Of a stretch of 64,000 nucleotides of DNA, positions 1-12,203 are shown in pieces. Made by a program: the position numbers and the translations under genes. This DNA is from an uncultured Planctomycetota bacterium (GTDB taxonomy: Bacteria > Planctomycetota > Planctomycetia > Isosphaerales > Isosphaeraceae). The stretch spans positions 256,001 through 320,000 of the forward strand of contig CAWJTV010000013.1 in NCBI GenBank assembly GCA_963845755.1. Direction: 5' to 3'. Within the stretch, counting starts at the first letter, position 1; the number at the start of each line of letters is the position of its first letter. A model generated the notes under the pieces. That model ran no database searches and was not told where the DNA came from. It was given only the letters and a program-made list of their open reading frames with translations.

Positions 1-79
1 ACTCGGTGCAAGGTGGGACAGGAGCCGACTGAGGTCAGCGAGTTACAGAGCTGGGACGACCTCCTCCATTCGAGTTGAT

Positions 80-2097
80 GTGATGGGTACGCTCGACGCG
101 ATTCAGGGGCTATCGGATGGGGAGTTCCACAGGCTTGGAGACGACCTTCTACGGAAGCTCGACGCCCGATACCGGCGGCTCCGCACACACGGCCTCAATG
201 ACCGTGGAGAGAGCATCAAGGGGCAGCCGGATTCCTATGTCGGTGACACGGCTACGACGTGTAGTGTGGCGGTCTGCTATACCGTAGAAAAAAAGGGGTG
301 GTGGACCAAGGTCGTAGACGACGTTCGTGAAGCCGTCGCTGTTTCGCCGATGGTCAAAGAGATCGTTGTGGTCATCCCGCACAACGCCGACCGGGACGGA
401 CCGAAGGTTAAGAGCATCGACTGGCTCTCAAACGCACGTACGGCGGCCGGGACGGCGAGTCTCCGTGTGATCGACGGGCGGGAGATCAGCCGAGAACTGG
501 ACACAGACCACCAGGACCTTCGTTACATACATCTCGGGATTCCCTATTCTCGTCTCTCCGGCCAGAGCATCCTCGCCGGTTGCCAGGCCGCATCCCTGAA
601 GGTCATCGATTCGATCAAGGCGAGTGGTCGATACGACCCCGGTCGTTATGTCCCGAGGTCCGCCGACGGGGAATTGTACAGGCTCTGGCAGGCGGCCGCC
701 CGACACGGTTTCGACAACGAGCGACGAGTCGGCCCCGTCCGGTTGATTGCTCTGGTAAGTGATTCCGGCCTCGGGAAGACTAGCCTCATGTGCGAGTTTA
801 CCCTCAAGCTCGGGCGGGTGCTCCCGGTGTTGCTCGTCCAGGCTCGGGATCTGCTGCTCGGGACCGAGAACAGCCTGGTCGCCCACGCGGTCCATGACAT
901 CCAGGGCTTTCTCGACCCGGCCGCACGAGTAAACGAGGAAGCCGCCCTGTGCAAACACCTGTCTGGCTCCGTGTCGCTTACCGTCGTCCTGGATGGGCTG
1001 GATGAGGCGCACCACCCGGATGCCATCAGAAGAATGATCTCGAACTGGTTGGGGTCCAGGCTGGGTCAATCCAGCATCTTGATAGTCACTTCACGGCGGG
1101 AGTTCTGGAGGACATGTGTAGACCGCTCCTGGGAGCGATGGATGCCGTCCACGACCCATGAAGACCGCTTATCCATCAAGATTGCCGAACCTATGCAGTC
1201 CGAGCGGAGCGATCCAGTCGCCGGCATCCGGCTACCGGACCGATTCACTGATGACGAACTCGATGCAGCCTGGTTACGGGCGGCCCAGCCTCGGCAGGAA
1301 TTGTTCGCATTTTCAGACGAAGTCAGGGCGGAACTTCGCCACCCGTTCACGCTCCGGGTGTTCCTCGACCTCCGCAGCAAAGGCGACCCTCTGCCCGGAC
1401 CCTGACGAGGGCGGCTCTCCTCGAGTGCTGGTTGGACCGCCGGCTCGCCGCCGAGGCAGAGGCGATGCCGAGGGAGCGGATCACCCGCAGCCACTTCCAG
1501 CAAGCGCTCCGTGTCGTGGCGCGTCGCCTCGCCGATGCGAACTCGGGCTCCGTGTCCGTTGACGAGTTGACGGGAGTTCCTTACTTCAATCCAGCCAAGC
1601 CGCCTGGGCTGGTTGTTCAACGCCTAATCGAGGCCAGCATCCTGGAAAGTCTACCAGGCCGACCGGATCGGGTCCGTTTCTCCGTCGAGGCGGTCCAGGA
1701 TTACTACCAGGCGGAGGTGGACATCGAGGAGATCAAGGCTGATCCCAGTCGGATGGCGGAGGTCTATTCACGCCTCCAGTTCACAACGGCCTATCTCAGG
1801 CTGCTGCGGATCGGGCACAGCCAGGTCGGCGGGGGGGACCTGGACGAGTTTGCCCGTCGCCTGGCGGAGTTGAATGCCTGGATGGCAGCCGTCGTATTGC
1901 GGCCGGCCCCCCACCGATTCTCCCCGGACATCAGGGCGAGGATCGCCGACGAACTCGGTCAGCAGATATCGTCGCGTCACCGTGCCCGGGCAGCGATGGC
2001 GATAACTATGCTCGGAGAGGTTGATTGTCAGGAATCCGCCGAGACTTTGGCGGCTCACCTTCTCCCGCCGTCCGACGCTCATCCCGATTTTAAACGC
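80..2097 (+). CDS. 5' part of interrupted STAND/NACHT-like NTPase with N-terminal restriction-endonuclease-like domain (frameshift at ~1400, then split by RIT insertion)
   Basis: Walker A SDSGLGKTS, Walker B VVLDGLDE, sensor-like ILIVTSR, ELRHPFTLR. N-terminal EFHRLGDDLL...KGQPDSY pattern. ORF 80-1405 continues into 1432-2178 through a 1-nt shift and turns to non-coding-like sequence after HPDFKR (2097). Confidence 0.8.
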
Positions 2098-2178
2098 TTA
2101 TGTTGTCGCTCTCGTTATGTGGCAGCTACCCGCTTTTTCCGAGGACCTCAGGCCGTGGCCAGCGCAGACACCACATAA
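2098..2178 (+). repeat. RIT left end (two 8-bp core sites 9 bp apart plus an inverted internal site)
   Basis: ttatgttg tcgctctcg ttatgtgg ... ccacataa; inverted counterpart at 9116-9197. Confidence 0.8.
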
Positions 2179-2319
2179 GTTCGCATGCTGTCACGCCAAC
2201 TCATGCAAGGACTCGCGATCGCGGTTTTACCGGAAACCCTGGCCCCTCCTTGGTTCGTTATTGGCCCTTCGCTGCACTGGCTTGGGCGGGGCGGGCCGGC
2301 TTCGCCGGACCTGCTGCCG

Positions 2320-2566
2320 ATGGCAGTTGGTATTTGAGCAGTTGGAGCCGCTCGTCGATGGACCGTGCCAGGCCGAGCTAGCGGTCAAGCATCTGGATGG
2401 CGCCGATGCCACCGCAGGCGATGCCCCGAGTCTTCGCGGCGCCCTCGTAATGAATGTTGGAGGCGGTGAAGACTAGCTCGGGCGAACGGGCGGTGACCAG
2501 CCTGTCGAGCCGCAGGCAGATTTTCCGCTTGCCGACGGCGTGGTGGCGGTGTGGAATCGTATTCAC
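2320..2566 (-). pseudogene. IS1380-family transposase N-terminal remnant
   Basis: RKICLRLD...VFTASNIHYEGAAKTRGIACGGIGAIQMLDR*LGLARSIDERLQLLK resembles N-termini of planctomycete IS1380 transposases as I recall them; internal stop. Confidence 0.6.
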
Positions 2567-2740
2567 TCGAAGCCTCCTTGTAGGTTCGGCTGTGGGATCG
2601 GTGTAGGTCGGTCTAATGTGCTGGAAACGCCGGGAGATCACGAGTTTTTCACTGGTTGCCCGGACGCGACCGGCCACCCCAATCTCGCGAATGGCGCATG
2701 GAGGCGAAACCCCGTGGAGCAGGCCGAAGGTGCACCGGCC

Positions 2741-5541
2741 ATGAGCATCACATCCGACCTTGTCGAAGCGTACTCCCTCTGTCCAAGGAAAGCATTCCTG
2801 CTGATGACGGGGGCGACAACAGACCCCGGTCCGCACGCCTATGAACTGCTCATCCGAGAGCAGGCGGAGGCCAACCGCCAAGCCCACCACGTCCGCCTGG
2901 CGAATACCAATGAGGTCGTCATCGCCAGCGGCCCGGCCGACCTGACGGCGGGCCGGGATGTACTCGCGGACGCGGAACTGGCGATCAGCGGCCTCCAAGC
3001 CCACTTCGACTTTCTCGCGAAAGTGCACGAGCCCTTGCGGCGGGGACGGAGCTTCTACGAGCCGATGAGGGTCATCGGCACTTACAAAGCGTCAAGGACG
3101 GACGCCCTCGGCTTTGCCTACGAGGCTCTTGTCCTTGGCGAAGTGCAGGGGCGGAAGCCGGCCTCGGGCGCGCTGGCTCGGCTGGGCGGCCGCCTCTGCG
3201 AGGTGCAGTTCGCCAGCAGGTATAAAGAGGTGCGGCGGATCGTCGAGACGCTGCGGGCATGGGCAGCGCAACCCGCTGGTGAACACCCCGCCAGTGGTCG
3301 CTGAACAAGCACTGCCCGAGCTGCCCCTTCCGGGCCGCCTGCCTGAGCAGGCGGAGAAGGAAGACAATCTGAGCCTGCTGGACCGGATGACGCCGAAGTT
3401 GATGCGGAAGTATCACGACAAGGGCATCTTCACGGTCCGGCAACTGTCCCACATCTACAAGCCGAGGAGGAGCAGAAAGAAGGCCAGACGGCAGGCGCGG
3501 CACAACTTGGAGTTACAAGCTCTGGCAATCAGGACGGGGAAGGTCCATGTCGAGCACCTGCCCGACCTGCCACGCGGGTCCGTCGAGTTGTTCTTGGATC
3601 TCGAGGGTCTCCCGGACCGCGACTCGTACTATTTGGCCGGACTTCTCGTGTGCAGGGAGATGGCGAGGCCGAGTACGAGCCCTTCTGGGCCGATGACGAG
3701 AACAGACGAGGCCGCGATGTGGTCAGCCCTGGTCAATCGGTTGGAGACGTTCCCCGACGCCCCGATCTACCACTACGGCAACTACGAGAAGAAGGCGTTC
3801 GCCACGCTGACGAAGCGGCACGGCAAAGGCGGCGGGCTTGCTGAGCGCTTGGTCAACGTGGCATCGTCCGTGTACGGCAAAGTCTACTTCCCGGTGCGGT
3901 CGAACGGGCTGAAGCAACTGGGCAGGTTCCTGGGGGCCGTTTGGGCCGACCCGCAGGCATCGGGCTTGCAAAGCCTGGTCTGGCGGCACCGCTGGGAGAT
4001 CGACGCGGGACGAGGCGTTTAAGCGGTTCCTGCTCCAGTACAACTACGAGGATTGCGAGGCCGCTCGTCTGCTGGTCGAACGCTTGGACCAGATCAAGCG
4101 GGAGGCCGCGTCGGATCCGGTGATCGAATTCGCCAGCCGGCCGAAGCGACACGCGACCGAAACCGGAAAGGCACTCCACAGCCAGTTCGAGCAGATCTTG
4201 AAGTCCGCACAGATTGAATTCGCCGGTCAGGGAATCCGTATCGCGAGAGACAAGAGATATGGGGGAGCGAATGCCTGCGGAAGAAACGGAGCGCGCGAAA
4301 CGGACACCAGACTTACCGCCGGATCATGTCTAAAGGCCAGCCGGACTGTCTCCGTGGAACCGCGGCAGCAGATGCCCAAAGCACAATGTGGTGATCTCGT
4401 GCCGAAACCGAACAAGCTCGGCCGAGAGAACCGTCATCGACCTCGTGTTTTCCAAGAACGGTTGCCGGAAGACAATCACGCGGTACGTCGGGTCAATAGA
4501 GGTTACTGCCGATGTGATGCGGAGCCCTACAGACCAGAAGGATTTCGCGGCTGGCAACAAGGCCTTCGGGCACGGGTTCCAGGTCTGGGCCGTTTACCAA
4601 CGGATCGTGCTTCGGCTGCCCTACGCGATCATTGCTCAGGTCATGGAGCACTTCTTCGGCGTCGGCGCTCGGCATCATCCAGCATCATCGACTTCCTCGG
4701 GAACCTTGCCGGTTTCTACTCGGAAACCGAGGCCGCCCTTCTCCGGGCGATCCGGAAGAGCGACTTCGTCCACGTCGATGAAACCAAAATCAACATCGAG
4801 GGTGTGGCCCACTACGTTTGGGTGTTCACCGACGGGCAACACGTCGTGTTCCGTATGACGGAGACACGAGAGGCCGATATCGTTCGCGAGGTGCTGGCCG
4901 ACTACAAGGGCGTATTGGTCAGCGATTTTTACTCCGGCTACGACGGAATTCCGTGCCGTCAACAGAAGTGCCTCGTTCACCTCATCCGCGACATCAACGA
5001 CGACCTCTGGAAGGCTCCCTTCGAGAAGGAACTGGAGGCGTTCGTCCGTGGAGGTCCAGACCCTTCTCGTGCCGATCCTAGGAAGCAGTGGATCGCTTCG
5101 GATTGAAAACCCGGCACCTTCGGAAGTTCAACAAGGAAGTAGAACGATTCTACGAGAAGAACATTTCTGGAAGGGAGTACGCGTCGGAGTCAGTGCGAGA
5201 CATACCGAGAAGCGGTTCGACCGCTACCGGAACAACCTGTTCACCTTTCTAAACGAGGACGGAATCCCCTGGGAGAACAACATGGCGGAGAGGGCGATTC
5301 GGCAACTGGCCGTGCAGCGGAAGATCTCGGGATCGTTCTTCAAGCGGGTCGGTCCCGCACTACTTGCTGCTGCTGGCCATCTCGCAGACGTGCCGCTTCC
5401 AGGAGCAAGTCGTTCCTGAAGTTCCTGTTGTCGAAGGAGACCGACATGGATTCGTTTCGGCAGAGAAGGCTAGTCCGTTATTCCTACGCCGCCGGCAGCC
5501 AGAGGGTCATGCCGGAACCGCCACCAGGTCAGACAGTTTAA
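2741..5541 (+). CDS. TM0106/RecB-Cas4-like + RNase H-like DEDD exonuclease + IS66-family DDE transposase fusion (~930 aa, several frameshifts)
   Basis: CPRKAFL ... NKHCPSCPFRAAC (Fe-S staple); LFLDLEG, HYGNYE, SNGLK, LLQYNYEDC; VHVDETKI, LVSDFY, QQKCLVHLIRD, IPWENNMAERAIR. Assembled from overlapping ORFs 2540-3304, 3114-4022, 4084-5106, 4388-4858, 5048-5419, 5364-5744. Confidence 0.8.
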
Positions 5542-5840
5542 ACGAGCGAGGTCTGGGCATTGACAGCACCATGCATCGAGAAAACTACAGGGCATCCCGA
5601 GACGATGGTTTTCGGCGAGGCAGCTCACTCGAAACTACCCCTTTAACCTCAGAAGTGATTCGGAGTCCATTCCCCTGGTTTTCTGGACCAGAAGTGGCAG
5701 TCAACCATGTATCACAGCGAGCATCTCGCTTGTTTCAGGTCTAACTTGAAGGGAGTCCAATGGTGGCTCATGCCCCAGAAAAAGCTCGGAGAGCATGCAC
5801 AAAGATCTTCTCGGTCGCCATCAAGACGCGAACGAGACGC

Positions 5841-6856
5841 TTACAACGTCCGCAGGAATGCCATGACATCCTTCTGTTCACGCCAAGGTTTCCGATGCTC
5901 CTCGCCACCAACTTCGCAGTTCGCCAGGGCCTTGGCCTTCATTTCCAGATCTACTTCCGCATAGACGTTCGTCGTCTTTAGCGAGACGTGGCCGAGCCAG
6001 GCACGGATCGTGTTGATGTCCACCCCGGCACGCAGCAGGTGCATCGCCGTCGTGTGCCGGATCGTGTGCGGGCTGACGCGTTTGTTTGCCACCGACGGCA
6101 TCGTCGCTGCGACCACTTGCCGCGTATCGCTCCACCAGCGCATGAATTCCAAACCGCGTCAGCGGTTGGCCTCGACGGTTGAGGAAGACGGGTTCCTGAA
6201 GGGGCACGACCGCTCACCAAGGGAATCAACTCGTTGACTGTCCTGGCCCACAGCGGGCAGCGGCGTTGCTTGTTCCCCTTGCCGTGGATCAGGACCGATG
6301 AGGGATCTCGCTCCGGTGTCTGACCCAGGTCGAGGTCAGCGACCCGGACCTGGGCCGCCTCGTCCGCGCGAGCACCCGGTGTTGTAAAGGAACAGCAGCA
6401 GGGCGTGATCCCGCCGACTCTGGGCCTTGCTCGTATCCGGTGCCGCCAGCAGGGCGTCCATCTCCGCCTTCTCCAGGTAGCTCACCAACGGCCGGGGCGC
6501 TTTCTTGAACGGGATGGAACGGATTTCCCCGCACCACTGGACGTGTTCCGGGCTGCGCTGCACCGACGAAGTGCGCCAGGGAGCGGATCGCCGCCAGACG
6601 CTGATTGCGCGTCGCCGCGCCACAGCCCCGCTTCTCGCCCAGTTCGCCCAGGAAGGCCCGAACCCGGACGGCCGAGAGGTCCTCGACCTGGAGCCGGTCA
6701 ATCCCCTTGCGGACTCGCTGTGCGGCAAAGGGCAGGAGCAGCCGCAAGGTGTCGCGGTAGCTCCGCTGGGTGTTGCGCGCGAGGTTCCGCTCGGCGACGA
6801 GGTGCTCGAGCAGGAAAACGCCGCACCCACGGCCCGAGCAAGGCGGCGTCAGTCAT
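5841..6856 (-). CDS. ritC: Tyrosine recombinase RitC (frameshifted)
   Basis: ATRNQRLAAIRS, RDHALLLFLYNTG, SPHTIRHTTAMHLLRAGVDINTIRAWLGHVSLKTTNVYAE. Confidence 0.85.
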
Positions 6857-7802
6857 GGCTACCCTCCTTTCCCGCGTAGCACTCGAAGCGTCCATTGGCT
6901 TCCGCCAGCAACTCCGGCGTCATGCTCAGATAGACCTGCGTGGCGGCGAAGTAGACATGCCCCAGGTAGACCGACAGCTGGGGCAGCAACTTCTGCACAT
7001 CAACCCCCTGCCGATACCAGGACGTCAACCGGTGGACCGCGAAGGTGTGACGCAGGTCGTGCAGCCGCGGCTGGTAGCGCGCGCCGGCCTGCGCCGGACG
7101 CCGGAGTCCTCACAGACGCGACGGAAGCTATTCATCCATGGTGTCCTTGGCTCACTCGGATGCCATCGCGCATGGTGAAGAACGGAGCCTCTGCTGCGGG
7201 ACTCGGGATGGTGCCGCGCGGCGGCCGAGGTGTACTCGGCCAGGACGCCACCCAATTGCGGGCTGAAGGGGACCAGCCGGGTCTTGAAGAACTTCGTCGT
7301 GGCGGACCGTGAGCAGGGAATCTTCGCCAGATCGACGTCGTCGCGATTCAGGGCAAGCGCCTCGTGGAGACGCAGACCGGCCCCGTAGAACAGCAGGACG
7401 ACAGTGCGAATCGTGATCGGCTCCAGGCGGCTGCGTCGTCGCCGGTAGCAGTCCGTCGCTCGCACGAGGCGACGGATCTCGTCGTGCGTGTAGATGTACG
7501 GGACAAAAGGCGGGGGCCGTTGCGGCAGCACTACGGGCAGGGGCGACGCGGCAACGTAACCACGGGTGATGGCGTAGCGATAGAACCCGAGCAAGGCGGT
7601 GTACCTGATGTACCAGGCGCTGGTGATCGGCCCCTTCCCGTCCAGGAAGGCTTCGACTTGCTCCTGGCCCGGACGTCAGTGACAGTGGCAGACGCACCGA
7701 CGGCACGCCCGAAGGCCCGCAGGAACTGGCGTTGGTCTTGAACCGTTCCCCCAACATCTGGCGATAGGCAATGTAGCGTTCGATCAGTTCTTGCAGGTTC
7801 AT
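6849..7802 (-). CDS. ritB: Tyrosine recombinase RitB (frameshifted)
   Basis: MNLQELIERYIAYRQMLG, PYIYTHDEIRRL, LFYGAGLRLHEAL, TKFFKTRLVP, RLHDLRHTFAVHRLTSWYRQG...LSVYLGH. Confidence 0.85.
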
Positions 7803-9055
7803 AGCAACCCTCCGAGATCGAAGTCGGCAACCTGGCGGAGCCCGCGAGGTCCACCTTGGCGTAGACGCGCGTCGGTCTCCGGGTGGCGGTGGCCGAGGTG
7901 GTCGCCGATCTCCTTGAGTGATAGACCCTGTTTCAGGAGGTGAGTCGCGCAGGCATGGCGAAGGGCATGGGGGCCAAACCGAGCCAGGGAAGGACTCACA
8001 ACGCGCAGGCGTCGCGAGACGATCAGGTAGAGCGTACTTCGGTGCAGTGGGCGGAGTGGGGCATGACAACGTGCGAGGAAGACTTCGCGTAAGGCCGCGC
8101 GTGGCCGCACCTCCTTGAGGTAGCGGAGGATTGCCGCAGCCACGGATCGGGCCAGCGGATAGATCCGAGGCCGACCCGACTTAGAGAGCCGCACGGTAAA
8201 CACCTCCCCGCTCCCAGTCGAAGTCATCCAGCCGGAGTTGGACGACTTCGCTGGCGCGGAGGCCGTAGACGGACAGCAACAGGAGCAGGGCATGATCCCG
8301 GATGTCAACCGGCCGATCTCCCTGGGTCATCGCCAGTGCCCGCCGGACCTCGTCCCAGGTCGGACCGGTGGGAATGGTTTCCTGTCCGAAGACACGGGGG
8401 CCTTTGATGGCGGCTGCCAGTCCGGTGCGACACCAGCCGCGCCTTTCCGCATAGCGGAAAAAGGAGCGTAAGAAACCGGCACAGTCACGCACCGTGGAGC
8501 GGCAGTAGCGACCAGAAGCGACCTGCGCGGCAAGGGCATTGTCGATATGATCGACCGTAATTCCTTGGAGTGAGCCGTTGGTCGGGTTGAGACGGATGAG
8601 TATTATACCGAGGGCCAAGCAACGGCACTCAATGGTGGTGGGCGACAACCCCCTCTCGTTGCGGAGGTACTCGGCAAATGCCGCAATCTCTCCAGCGAAA
8701 GGAACAGGTGTGACAGGTACTGGCTTGAGTCGTCCCAGGAACCGAAGCCAGGCGATGGCGAAGGCGAGAATAAGGTGCGGGCGGTCCGGGCCCCGGCGAT
8801 CCTGCGCGGTCCGGGTTGCTGAGCCCAGAGGATTGCCGTCTGGCCAATCTCGTCGCGCGAGATGAGTTCATCTGTACGATCCGCCAAACGCAAGAGTCGA
8901 GCAATCACGAGCAGATAGTGGGCTCTGCACCGTAAGTCGGTGCGACGCATCCCGAGCTCGGCCAGATGAGCAAGGTAGCGGAGCCGCTCCTCGAGCAAGG
9001 GACCAGCGCGATGGAGTGCTACATAGCGGGGACGCTCGAATAGTTGGTCGAACAA
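7799..9055 (-). CDS. ritA: Tyrosine recombinase RitA (frameshifted)
   Basis: MFDQLFERP, RDHALLLLLSVYGLRASEV, GPHALRHACATHLLKQGLSLKEIGDHLGH, LRQVADFDLGGLL; stop overlaps the RitB start (ATGA). Confidence 0.85.
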
Positions 9056-9115
9056 AGTCGAAACTCCACGGGGGTAGTGAGAAAGGAATCACTTCGACTA
9101 TGGTAATGACGGAAT

Positions 9116-9229
9116 TTATGTGGTCTTCTTGCAAAGGCAAACCTGAGATTGGCCGAGAGTAGTGGCTGGCCGCCACATAATCAGGCACGTCACACAAGAG
9201 CTCTTATGTGGTCGACCACATAAGAGCTC
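9116..9229. repeat. RIT right end plus perfect 32-bp palindrome (9198-9229)
   Basis: gagctcttatgtggtcgaccacataagagctc equals its own reverse complement. Confidence 0.9.
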
Positions 9230-11032
9230 CTCGGAGCAGTGGCGTTTTCCAAACTCGGCTATGTGCCCGCAGCCGAATTCGTGTACCGATGGGAGATGTT
9301 CGGACTCTCAGGCCATGACATCTACATCTTCAAGAAACTCCTGGGAACCATCCGAGGGGCAAACCCAGACTTCCGCAAGACTCTTGCGGAGGTGGCACTC
9401 CAGAAGATCTCAAATCCCAGCGGCGCAGCCGAGCACCTAAAGGCCGTGGCCGTGCTTTCTTCTCTCGGCGATGACCGCCTCGTGGCACACCTGGAGGGCC
9501 GCCTCGCCGAGAACGGCCTGCTCGGTAGGTATGAAAACCATGCCCTGATCGCCCTGGGAACAGATGCAGCGGGGGCCTTGTTCGCCCGCTCCGTGATGGC
9601 GGTCGGGGCAAGGCTCGCCGGACTTCCTAACGACCATGCCAACCACGATGCCCGCAACAGGCTCATCTCCCTCGTCCGTTCTAATACATATGATACGCGT
9701 TACTTGCTAACTCCGGCTTTCGAACCGCATCTCAAAGCACTCATCAAGGCCGACAATCCAGATGTTTCGTGGCTTGCCAGTGCTCTGGCAAAGCGTGGCC
9801 TCATGGCATCGCTACTCTACTCGGCCGTCGTAGTAGGCGATCCGCCAGGCGAGTTGGATTTGCATCGCAACCAACAACGAGCCTGCGTCACCACTGACGT
9901 TTGGCTGGGATGGTGGCGGCAATCCACCGACTCCGGCTTGAGACGAAGACTGCTGGGCCTTCTCCCGCTTTGCCCGAGTGCCGAGGTTGAAAAGATCCTT
10001 ATCGAATGTCTCGATTCGGCCGAACTTCGTGGATCAGCCGCCCGAGAACTCGGAGACTACGGTGTTGTCCGTTCGGCGGCTGATCTGCGGGGAATACTGG
10101 CGGAAGAGATTACTGCGGGCGACCATTGGGGCAGGTACGGAGCGGTCCGTGCTTTGGGTGCCTTGCGAGACGAGGCCGCAGTGCCCCTCTTGGAGAAGAC
10201 CGCGGCAGAGTATCCACTCGACTGGATTGTAGGAGAAGCGGTGTCGAGCCTTGGCCTTATCGGCACTCCGGCGGCGGAATGTGCTTTGGACCGACTCCTT
10301 CAGTGTGGAAAGGCGGGAGAGTTTGAGGAGATGGTCCTCGAAGCCCTGTTATACTGCGGTTCCGCGCCAGCAGTTTCAATCGTTGTGAATCGCGCAAGAT
10401 CGAGAATGGATGGTCCCCGTTGGCTCTGCGATCGCCTCGTCGGGCTTAGCGACTTCCGTGGGTGGAGCCAAGGTGAATACTACACCGACATTTACACCGA
10501 CGAGTTGGTGGACTATCTGACGTCACATTACCAGACGGGCTCGCCAGGACAGGATTGGAAGTTGGGAGAAGCCTTTCGCCAGATCGACAGTCCGGCCGTC
10601 CGGACCTTGCTGCGGAAGTGGGCGGACCGACGAGGATCACCCCAAGATTCGTTGATGCGAGAGAACGGACGCCGACGAATATCCGATGTTTGCCTCGAGG
10701 AATTGAGGGACCGAGGCGATGAATCGGCTATCGATTTTACCCTTGATGGGCGAGCAGAGGATAAGGACAACATTTACGTCCTGGCGACAGCCGACCTCCT
10801 CCGCACATTCCCGGCTACGGCTGTCGCCGAGCGTTTACGCCTGCGGCTGGCCGCAGCGACGACTACATCGCAGGTTGTGCGAATGCTCTGTCTTCTCGGG
10901 AGATTTGGTGAAGCGGCCGATGTAGACCGGGCCAACCGTTTCCTGGACCATCCTGACGACCTGGTGGCGAGCGTTGCCTGTACGACTGTGCTCAGGCTGA
11001 GTGACCCGATGCTCCTACCGGACCGCTGGTGA
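9230..11032 (+). CDS. 3' part of interrupted STAND protein: HEAT/PBS-lyase repeat domain
   Basis: RGSAARELGDYG, YGAVRALGALRDEAAVPLL, GEAVSSLGLIG repeats; no RBS; in frame with the 5' part across the insertion. Confidence 0.8.
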   Translation, partial: LGAVAFSKLGYVPAAEFVYRWEMFGLSGHDIYIFKKLLGTIRGANPDFRKTLAEVALQKISNPSGAAEHLKAVAVLSSLGDDRLVAHLEGRLAENGLLGRYENHALIALGTDAAGALFARSVMAVGARLAGLPNDHANHDARNRLISLVRSNTYDTRYLLTPAFEPHLKALIKADNPDVSWLASALAKRGLMASLLYSAVVVGDPPGELDLHRNQQRACVTTDVWLGWWRQSTDSGLRRRLLGLLPLCPSAEVEKILIECLDSAELRGSAARELGDYGVVRSAADLRGILAEEITAGDHWGRYGAVRALGALRDEAAVPLLEKTAAEYPLDWIVGEAVSSLGLIGTPAAECALDRLLQCGKAGEFEEMVLEALLYCGSAPAVSIVVNRARSRMDGPRWLCDRLVGLSDFRGWSQGEYYTDIYTDELVDYLTSHYQTGSPGQDWKLGEAFRQIDSPAVRTLLRKWADRRGSPQDSLMRENGRRRISDVCLEELRDRGDESAIDFTLDGRAEDKDNIYVLATADLLRTFPATAVAERLRLRLAAATTTSQVVRMLCLLGRFGEAADVDRANRFLDHPDDLVASVACTTVLRLSDPMLLPDRW

Positions 11033-11297
11033 GATATGTAAGGTTGCAGATCGCCCCCATCGAACGCGCCGTTTGAAGAATATCAGGTAGGGGCAGGTCG
11101 AATGGACGCCTCTCGGAGGTCCTCGAACATTCGAGATCGACTACGTGAAGGACAACGCGCTGGAGGGGTATTGCTGAGAAACGACCAAACTCCACAGGAC
11201 GACGGTCGGCAAGGCGACCGTGGCGCGGTGGAAAAGACGGGTTGGCTCGCTGCAGTTGCCTCGGGTGCTCTCGCGGGTTGGGTGCGCCCGAGGAAGA

Positions 11298-11344
11298 CCC
11301 CTCACCCGCCCTTCGGGCACCCTCTCGCCCTGCGGGGGCAAGGG
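11298..11344 (+). repeat. REP-like palindromic intergenic element
   Basis: cccctcacc-cgccc-ttcg-ggca-ccctctcgccc...aggg; stem-loop with TTCG loop typical of REP/RIME-like repeats; single copy in window. Confidence 0.5.
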
Positions 11345-11362
11345 ATTGGAACACGCCGCACT

Positions 11363-11656
11363 TCAAGAAGCGATCACGTACCTCGAGGCGGATTGCGGGG
11401 GTCGAGGGCGCCTCGTGGATGTTGGACAGCCGGGGCCTGAGCCGCACGGACGAAGCGAGGGTACGAGGTGGCCCTCGACGAGCTTGATGAGCTTATCGAG
11501 GTCCGTCTTCTTCTTCAAACCCAGTGCCGTGCGGAGGCCGACGGGCTCATGGAGGGCGTGCTCGTAGAACGCCTCGGCGGTGGCGATGCCGTAGCGACTC
11601 TCGAGGAGCTGGGCACTCTCCGCTGGGAAGGTCGGGATTTCGTCGAGGTATTTCAC
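11363..11656 (-). CDS. Small hypothetical protein, possibly frameshifted at the 3' end
   Basis: VKYLDEIPTFPAESAQLLESRYGIATAEAFYEH... has protein-like composition and GC3-rich codons. Confidence 0.45.
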   Translation of the reverse strand: MKYLDEIPTFPAESAQLLESRYGIATAEAFYEHALHEPVGLRTALGLKKKTDLDKLIKLVEGHLVPSLRPCGSGPGCPTSTRRPRPPQSASRYVIAS

Positions 11657-11900
11657 GGGCCTGGCTCTTGGGGATGAATGTCCCATCCTGCATTGTATGA
11701 CTTGCCCCCCTCTGCGTCACCCACACCGATTCGCTTCACGCTGAACCGGCGTGGCTGGTCGTTGGGGTTCGGTGGGCCGGTCGTCGGCCTGCCCGCCGAT
11801 TCCGTGAGCGCTCTGGCAAATCCGGGGGTTCGTGGGGACAATCGACGCTCACGAACGGTCGGAGACCTGGAACGCACTCCAATTCCCGAAGGCCCGCGAG

Positions 11901-12203
11901 ATGTCCACTGCATCGAATGTGTCGGTTGGTCTGATCGCACTCGTGTGGTTCGCGCTGAGCGGGGTGCGCCCGGGCTTCGCCAGCGGCGTGGAGCCCGAGG
12001 GTGCGAGAGGAGAGGCCGCCGCACATCGCGATGTGCACTCGTACGGCAATCCGGATCTGGTGCGGGTCCGGCGGGTCGCGCTCGACCTCAGCGTGGACTT
12101 CGACCGTCGCGAGCTGAAGGGCGAGGCGGTCCTTGACATTCAACGACAAGATGGCGGTCCGCCCGCTCCTGGAGAGATGGGTGGCGAGGCAGAGGGGCCT
12201 TGA
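11901..12203 (+). pseudogene. N-terminal stub of M1-family aminopeptidase (leukotriene A4 hydrolase-like)
   Basis: Signal-like peptide then DVHSYGNPDLVRVRRVALDLSVDFDRRELKGEAVLD; stops after ~100 aa. Confidence 0.65.

Follow-up and report, generated by a model that had tools for sequence, protein, structure and literature searches.

The fusion gene and the RIT element around it

We analysed a stretch of 64,000 nucleotides (the window) from an uncultured Planctomycetota bacterium, corresponding to positions 256001-320000 of contig C13 in a genome (G000) of 14.27 Mb, 49 contigs and 87.9% completeness. At 2741..5541 on the forward strand, the window carries a gene in which an N-terminal TM0106 module, made of a Cas4-like domain and a DEDD exonuclease domain, is fused to an IS66-type DDE transposase domain. 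The fusion gene lacks inverted ends of its own and is enclosed, together with the tyrosine recombinase genes ritA, ritB and ritC, in a 7.07-kb RIT element. As sequenced, this copy is non-functional, and we annotate it as a pseudogene or a poor consensus based on profile matches and a read-through alignment. Throughout, L-numbers denote loci of the fusion gene in genome or metagenome contigs.

The gene runs from an ATG at 2741 to a stop codon at 5539-5541 and has no single open reading frame (ORF); instead, its coding signal is spread over all three forward frames. A frameshift-aware protein-to-DNA alignment to an intact 922-aa homolog (P0079) passes through 19 frameshifts and no in-frame stop, and 674 of the 919 aligned residues (73%) are identical in the read-through. 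Window fragments match the Pfam families PF13482 (RNase_H_2, E 5e-12) on 3300-4019 and PF03050 (DDE_Tnp_IS66, E 4e-18 and 2e-08) on 4021-5416. Among NCBIfam models, TIGR03491 (TM0106 RecB-like) scores 121.9 bits on 3300-4019, above its cutoff of 97.45, and 25.5 bits on the N-terminal piece alone; an IS66 transposase model matches pieces of the gene as well. The motif CPRK is encoded at 2780-2791 and LNKHCPSCPFRAAC in frame 1 at 3301-3342, while the read-through alignment contains DLE, HYGNYE, YNYED, HVDET, SDFY, NNMAE and YEPMRVIG, with all predicted catalytic residues kept. The domains and motifs that an earlier note on this DNA had listed for the gene are all present. The same note described them as a single polypeptide, which is true of the relatives, where translation meets no stop in 31 of the 32 full-length loci, and not of the window copy. 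It was also right that the surroundings lack the other parts of an IS66 element: no tnpA or tnpB gene was found around the fusion gene (window 1-12000), nor any GTAAGC...GCTTAC pair. A search of the same 12 kb against Rfam returned no match.

Two imperfect inverted ends, each about 68 bp long, delimit the enclosing element, one at 2115..2182 (left) and the other at 9113..9182 (right). Each is composed of TTATGTGG, about 48-50 nt and then CCACATAA. Between them, the 2.8-kb fusion gene is convergent with a reverse-strand trio consisting of ritC (5844..6801, 4 frameshifts), ritB (6855..7802, 8 frameshifts) and ritA (8102..9055, 3 frameshifts), which together hold 15 frameshifts and no in-frame stop. 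PF00589 matches reveal three consecutive tyrosine recombinases in 5844-9034 on this strand, and the three genes align respectively to ritC, ritB and ritA of other trios in the same genome (tblastn and frameshift-aware alignment). The 8-mers of the ends occur 32 times each in the 14.27 Mb and are clustered only at the left end and at 9116-9223. A perfect 32-bp palindrome of the same 8-mers is located at 9198..9229, just outside the right end.

In PMC3414803, RIT elements are described as about 3,500 bp long, ritA and ritC being flanked by an inverted repeat and a palindrome. As in that description, the window has ritA, ritB and ritC adjacent on one strand, inverted repeats and a palindrome nearby. 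Unlike the trio-only elements of about 3.5 kb described there, it extends over 7.07 kb with a 3.7-kb cargo segment, and all three of its recombinase genes are frameshifted.

The pairing of fusion gene and RIT genes recurs elsewhere. In both L003 and L013, the 3' end of ritC lies 200-230 bp upstream of the fusion gene, and L013 additionally has a RIT-type end with a palindrome 140 bp downstream of it. Four metagenome runs compared with the stretch yielded short contigs of relatives only. Moss-metagenome contigs that are 91-98% identical to the window cover the left end, and one moss-metagenome contig bridges 4995-6144, from the 3' end of the fusion gene into ritC. The three recombinases, the enclosing inverted ends and the recurrence of the pairing at two loci (L003 and L013), in a relative from a metagenome and in a paralog of 40% identity support the earlier claim that the gene is carried inside a RIT element.

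Some related sequences were observed along the way. The palindrome of end words (TTATGTGG/CCACATAA) is found in the window at 9198-9229 and also in L013 at 3266-3285; lying beside a RIT end, it could be a target or a recombination site. The genome of the window contains more RIT-like trios or fragments without a fusion gene (C6:123936-127157, C6:52750-56021 and C12:159720-160382), at least one of them with a frameshift in ritC. It also contains two copies of the 40%-identical paralog of the fusion gene, at C40:72196-78081 and C19:2843-6059, both on the reverse strand and both split by the same 418-aa DDE transposase element. The C40 copy has an IS3-like insertion in addition and faces a solo ritC-like gene (71107-72060) in convergent orientation; a scan of this unit for inverted ends gave none above shuffled controls.

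Residue conservation and predicted folds

The window gene was divided into four segments, all on the forward strand. The Cas4-like Fe-S domain (2741..3345) has Cys codons at 2780, 3313, 3322 and 3340, with D at 3008 and E at 3059. The DEDD (DnaQ-like, RNase_H_2) 3'-5' exonuclease domain (3588..4086) has D 3597, E 3603, H 3771, Y 4039 and D 4051. A Cys-rich linker (4373..4515, Cys codons 4373, 4463, 4507 and 4513) follows, and the IS66-type DDE catalytic domain (4565..5338) carries D 4777, D 4924 and E 5288.

Conservation was assessed on P0079 together with 32 full-length copies that are 42-86% identical to it (n=33, P0079 numbering). Within the Cas4-like domain, C16, C193 and C202 are found in all 33 sequences and C196 in 32; the four cysteines of an Fe-S staple are therefore in place, and cluster binding is predicted. 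The exonuclease residues D288, E290, H345, Y434 and D438 are invariant (33/33) and E350 is nearly so (31/33), so that the domain is apparently an active DEDD 3'-5' exonuclease, judging from these residues. Each member of the DDE triad (D676, D725 and E845) is likewise present in 33/33. Linker cysteines C543, C586 and C589 are conserved in 33/33 and C572 in 25/33, and the linker may form a zinc finger.

The nuclease motifs of Cas4/RecB proteins follow a different pattern and are not conserved: D92 is found in 26/33, E109 in 31/33 and Q130 of the QxxxY motif in 8/33. No sequence has a lysine two residues after E109 (0/33); three residues after it (K112), lysine is found in 10/33 and isoleucine in 17. 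The window reads YEPMRVIG at the ExK position and has R (3068) at the family's variable K/I position. Cas4-type nuclease activity has likely been lost. The suspicion voiced in the earlier note from the window alone thus extends to the homologs, among which the ExK lysine is lost family-wide and the DDE triad fully retained.

Structure prediction agrees with the domain assignments. The AlphaFold model of residues 1-470 of the intact homolog from L013 reached a pLDDT of 86.9 and a pTM of 0.84. The closest solved folds for its first domain are Cas4 in Cas4-Cas1-Cas2 prespacer complexes, the Cas4 proteins Pcal_0546 and SSO0001, Dna2 and Exo5 (the structural matches include 7mi5, 8d3l, 4r5q and 4ic1 of the Cas4 class), and for its second domain the exonuclease domains of family-B polymerases, TREX1/2 and DnaQ. 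By sequence, a profile built from 28 sequences of residues 1-470 found no match among solved structures at E up to 1. PADLOC Cas4 profiles match residues 8-204 at E 7e-09, and PF03050 matches P0079 at E 2e-35. Model, fold matches, Cas4 profiles and residue conservation converge on the Cas4-like fold with its four-Cys staple and on the DnaQ-like exonuclease, both of which had been proposed from the window's letters.

This layout can be compared with known systems. Terminal inverted repeats of IS66 elements typically start with GTAAGCG and are accompanied by an 8-bp target duplication, and tnpA and tnpB are absent from ISBst12-type members, which we take to be the single-ORF members of the family. 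Like these, the fusion has a DDE_Tnp_IS66 domain with invariant D, D and E, a Cys-rich region ahead of it and no tnpA or tnpB. It differs in that a TM0106 module of about 450 aa takes the place of the usual N-terminal region, in being usually single-copy, and in that neither inverted ends of the GTAAGCG type nor a target duplication could be recognised beside the gene. With the TM0106 family (TIGR03491), it shares the succession of a Cas4-like four-Cys domain and an RNase_H_2 exonuclease domain, but it is fused to a transposase domain and does not conserve the PD-(D/E)xK lysine or QxxxY. Cas4 proteins and Cas4-Cas1 fusions provide the best structural matches and likewise join an end-handling domain to an integrase; in those proteins the integrase is Cas1, whereas here it is a DDE enzyme, the nuclease motifs are degenerate and no CRISPR linkage was seen, cas genes being found near one locus group only. 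Finally, in Tn7 a restriction-enzyme-fold domain (TnsA) is paired with a DDE transposase (TnsB) as separate, active proteins. The fusion is analogous, but its nuclease-fold domain seems to be inactive, and a predicted 3'-5' exonuclease supplies the partner activity.

Distribution and neighbours of the family

A 240-aa exonuclease fragment served as the query in a search for longer proteins; of 6,542 candidates, 2,351 matched at E <= 0.001. Both PF13482 and PF03050 occur in 93 of the 120 matches listed (72-81% identical to the fragment), and most of these 93 are 920-985 aa long; among the matches listed, database names include 'IS66 family transposase', 'predicted RecB family nuclease' and 'TM0106 family RecB-like putative nuclease'. 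Intact relatives of the fusion are 899-943 aa in length. Scans of genome and metagenome contigs identified 83 other loci, most of them with an unbroken frame, labelled as Gemmatales, Pirellulaceae and Planctomycetaceae and also found in bins of Deltaproteobacteria, Acidimicrobiaceae, Aminicenantales and Methylococcaceae. The fusion family is therefore real and widespread, and constitutes an IS66 transposase variant with a built-in end-handling module. Judged by titles and abstracts, the papers found for TM0106 all concern pipeline corrosion, and none of those found for IS66 with Cas4 and transposase deals with such a fusion; the family is apparently unstudied.

Similarity between copies usually extends from 90-330 nt before the ATG to the stop codon. 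In each of the five host genomes checked, one full-length copy was found (5/5). Among 401 genomes sampled from the phylum, only four have a match at E <= 1e-50, the window's own genome included, and at least two of the other three copies are broken. Its behaviour is that of a mobile-element gene and not of a gene fixed in its host. The word 'domesticated', used for it in the earlier note, fits poorly with a gene that is so sporadic, is often broken and sits in many unrelated contexts with several kinds of carrier. A proliferating insertion sequence was considered and rejected on the single full copy per genome and on the 4/401 count.

We then compared the ends and carriers of the gene across loci. 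A narrow scan for inverted ends, matching upstream with downstream flanks against shuffled controls, found none at any of 13 loci. A wide scan of 900 bp on each side gave nothing above shuffles at 30 of 31 loci. The exception, L064, has 236-bp inverted repeats (about 87% alike) at 102-337 and 3568-3804, that is at -623..-388 and +54..+290 from the fusion gene, which look like a surrounding palindrome or a carrier. Both scans agree with the earlier claim that the gene lacks IS66 ends of its own.

Several kinds of mobile element lie next to the gene. At L014, a GTAAGCG-type IS66 pair at 3674/9727 encloses the fusion gene together with convergent tnpC and tnpB genes of a classical IS66 element; TnpB_IS66 is found only at this locus, as part of that element. 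A convergent classical tnpC also follows the fusion gene at L028 and L032. Large serine recombinases are encoded directly upstream at L019 and L038, with a remnant at L008, and a small resolvase upstream at L062. Linkage to RIT elements as a universal trait was rejected (2 of 83 other loci). Within one clade of 72-90% DNA identity, the fusion gene adjoins four kinds of neighbour.

A separate observation concerns L016, where a Cas5d gene and a PF08798 CRISPR-associated gene (3527-4758, reverse strand) lie 400 bp downstream of an intact fusion gene. This is the sole cas neighbourhood among the loci examined.

Interpretation and further observations

We know of no established mechanism for IS66 transposition and of no established role for TM0106 proteins. 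Our preferred explanation, in which we place about even confidence, is that the window gene is an orphan IS66-type DDE transposase with an N-terminal TM0106 module, carried as cargo of the RIT element: a putative end-processing integrase moved with its carrier. This copy would have moved with the RIT element by means of the tyrosine recombinases of the latter. As to biochemistry, the conserved residues and predicted folds suggest a possible mechanism of three steps: binding of a DNA end or single strand by the Cas4-like domain, trimming of the 3' end by the exonuclease so as to leave a defined 3'-OH, and joining of the trimmed end to a target by the DDE domain. The protein would then be an integrase with built-in end processing. 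The acquisition-like or target-selecting role suggested in the earlier note is pure conjecture; cas genes lie nearby in one locus group only (L016).

The fusion ties IS66 transposition and TM0106 together in one testable protein, of which thousands of natural variants exist. An end-processing integrase of this kind, if that is what it is, would be the DDE equivalent of Cas1 integration assisted by Cas4/DnaQ. The window is also a clear case of a RIT element with cargo and bears on how recombinase trios move genes. What it adds is a recurrent instance of RIT cargo and a gene that rides several carriers without ends of its own, in a copy that is non-functional as sequenced.

Several observations weigh against this explanation. 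RIT linkage is a minority arrangement, found at 2 of the 83 other loci. The carrier is not always visible: for many copies (among them L010, L024, L066, L067, L072 and those of two complete genomes), the nearest 4-10 kb contain neither a recombinase nor a transposase, and such copies adjoin housekeeping genes. The loss of Cas4-type nuclease activity is likely and not proven, because a catalytic lysine could be supplied from elsewhere in the fold. Further points of the same kind, namely the type of damage in the window copy and the sharp boundaries of two subgroups of the family, belong to the first two of the alternatives below.

The first alternative concerns the state of the copy. Because the fusion gene and the three recombinase genes are all frameshifted (19 + 15), the element is either dead or badly polished. 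The frameshifts might be non-biological, with 2115-9182 poorly polished, for example as an insertion present in part of the population, and the genes intact in the organism. We regard this as quite possible, if short of probable. Decay by mutation is expected to add stop codons and to favour deletions; here, 34 frameshifts and no in-frame stop are found in about 5.8 kb of coding sequence. A DNA alignment with nine intact homologs reveals 22 frame-changing indels specific to the window, 19 of which are insertions, of 1-4 nt and mostly outside homopolymers. The frameshifts therefore look more like consensus errors than decay, and the copy may be intact in the organism. In addition, all catalytic residues are retained, divergence is ordinary (72-77% DNA identity to the nine intact homologs, which are 70-90% identical among themselves in pairwise BLAST), long ORFs elsewhere in the window are unbroken, and the extra bases at 5044 and 5083 are both missing from a metagenome relative. 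However, no public run holding the DNA of the window was found (best word share 0.10), multi-copy insertion sequences in the same genome read intact, and other RIT copies as well as the C40 and C19 paralogs are damaged too, mobile-element decay being common in this genome. On balance, a poorly polished and perhaps low-depth or polymorphic insertion fits at least as well as a dead element.

The second alternative, which we consider rather unlikely, holds that the fusion gene encodes the transposase of an atypical element that consists of this one gene, measures about 3.2-3.3 kb and has no inverted ends. The element would insert beside sequences similar to its right end, such as the 3' end of tRNA-Pro, or beside the ends of other mobile elements, so that the RIT, IS66 and serine-recombinase neighbours would be targets and not carriers. 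Two subgroups of the family are single-gene units of this size with sharp shared boundaries and therefore fit a self-moving element. Subgroup A is a 3.3-kb unit whose left junction comes right after ...CCCCGACT in 6/6 loci. This sequence belongs to a real tRNA-Pro(TGG) in L002 and L026, the only tRNA genes among 84 sequences, and to a tRNA-like 3' end in L006, L012 and L034. A tRNA-like copy of CCCCGACT marks the right end in 4/4 loci that reach far enough, and at L034 the left end is immediately preceded by a 90-bp copy of the right end. In subgroup X, a single junction joins 100%-identical gene copies to three or more different left flanks. The four kinds of neighbour within one clade point in the same direction. 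Nevertheless, the scans brought up no inverted ends, a target duplication was not seen either (the ends are not definable), and the gene is rare and single-copy in full length, as described above. The direct repeats are imperfect and 33-90 bp long, which suggests att sites and accretion on an island integrated at a tRNA gene rather than DDE transposition, and a third tRNA-like repeat lies at the edge of the L006 island. Comparison with empty sites is no clearer: against L086 and L088, L008 has a messy, variable 3.8-kb insert with extra material and no clean unit. The search for an empty site of L006 returned an ortholog of the right flank only, and L010 lies amid repeats.

An element targeting sequences similar to its own end would be another possible reading of the tRNA-linked repeats. 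In a third alternative, improbable in our view, the protein is a self-sufficient DDE integrase without inverted repeats that inserts its unit of about 3.3 kb beside look-alikes of its own right end. The Cas4-like domain would capture a DNA end or hairpin, the exonuclease would trim it, and the DDE domain would insert the unit beside the 3' end of tRNA-Pro or beside the structured ends of RIT, IS66 and other elements. This would account for the presence of one and the same gene at the edges of mobile elements of four unrelated kinds. If true, it would amount to a novel mode of transposition by a DDE enzyme, analogous to the processing of prespacers by Cas4/DnaQ for Cas1.

Least probable of all is that the fusion serves as an accessory nuclease for conflict (defence or counter-defence), built from a recruited transposase and without a DNA-moving role: the neighbours do often include defence or conflict genes, namely AbiJ-TIR (L006), AlwI (L047), Mrr (L048 and L054), HNH (L061 and L073), TOTE (L075), PIN (L024 and L045) and the cas genes of L016, but such a neighbourhood proves little because defence genes and mobile elements cluster anyway, the PADLOC defence library has matches to the Cas4-like domain alone and assigns no system, and the fully conserved DDE triad favours strand-transfer chemistry.

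Minor features were noted at the edges of these units. Beside the subgroup A unit of L006, a hairpin of about 50 nt (a GC stem, then a T run) is found at 10870-10925, and also in G049, G064, G084, G085 and others. Hairpins of this type occur 1-3 times per genome in several related genomes and may be a REP-like repeat or a shared terminator.

In the window, the fusion gene is preceded by an upstream leader (2430..2740, forward strand), of which about 308 nt are common to L022 and the last 90-110 nt or so are conserved across the clade. This proximal part, at 2630-2740 in the window, recurs before the ATG in L013, L014, L017, L018, L022, L040 and L055. It has no Rfam match and contains GC-rich inverted segments around a GGAGG ribosome-binding site, which a predicted hairpin might hide. 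On either side of the RIT element lie an ORF at 2-1405 with weak similarity to NACHT domains (E 2e-04) and, at 9239-11032, an unbroken ORF of 597 aa with HEAT repeats.

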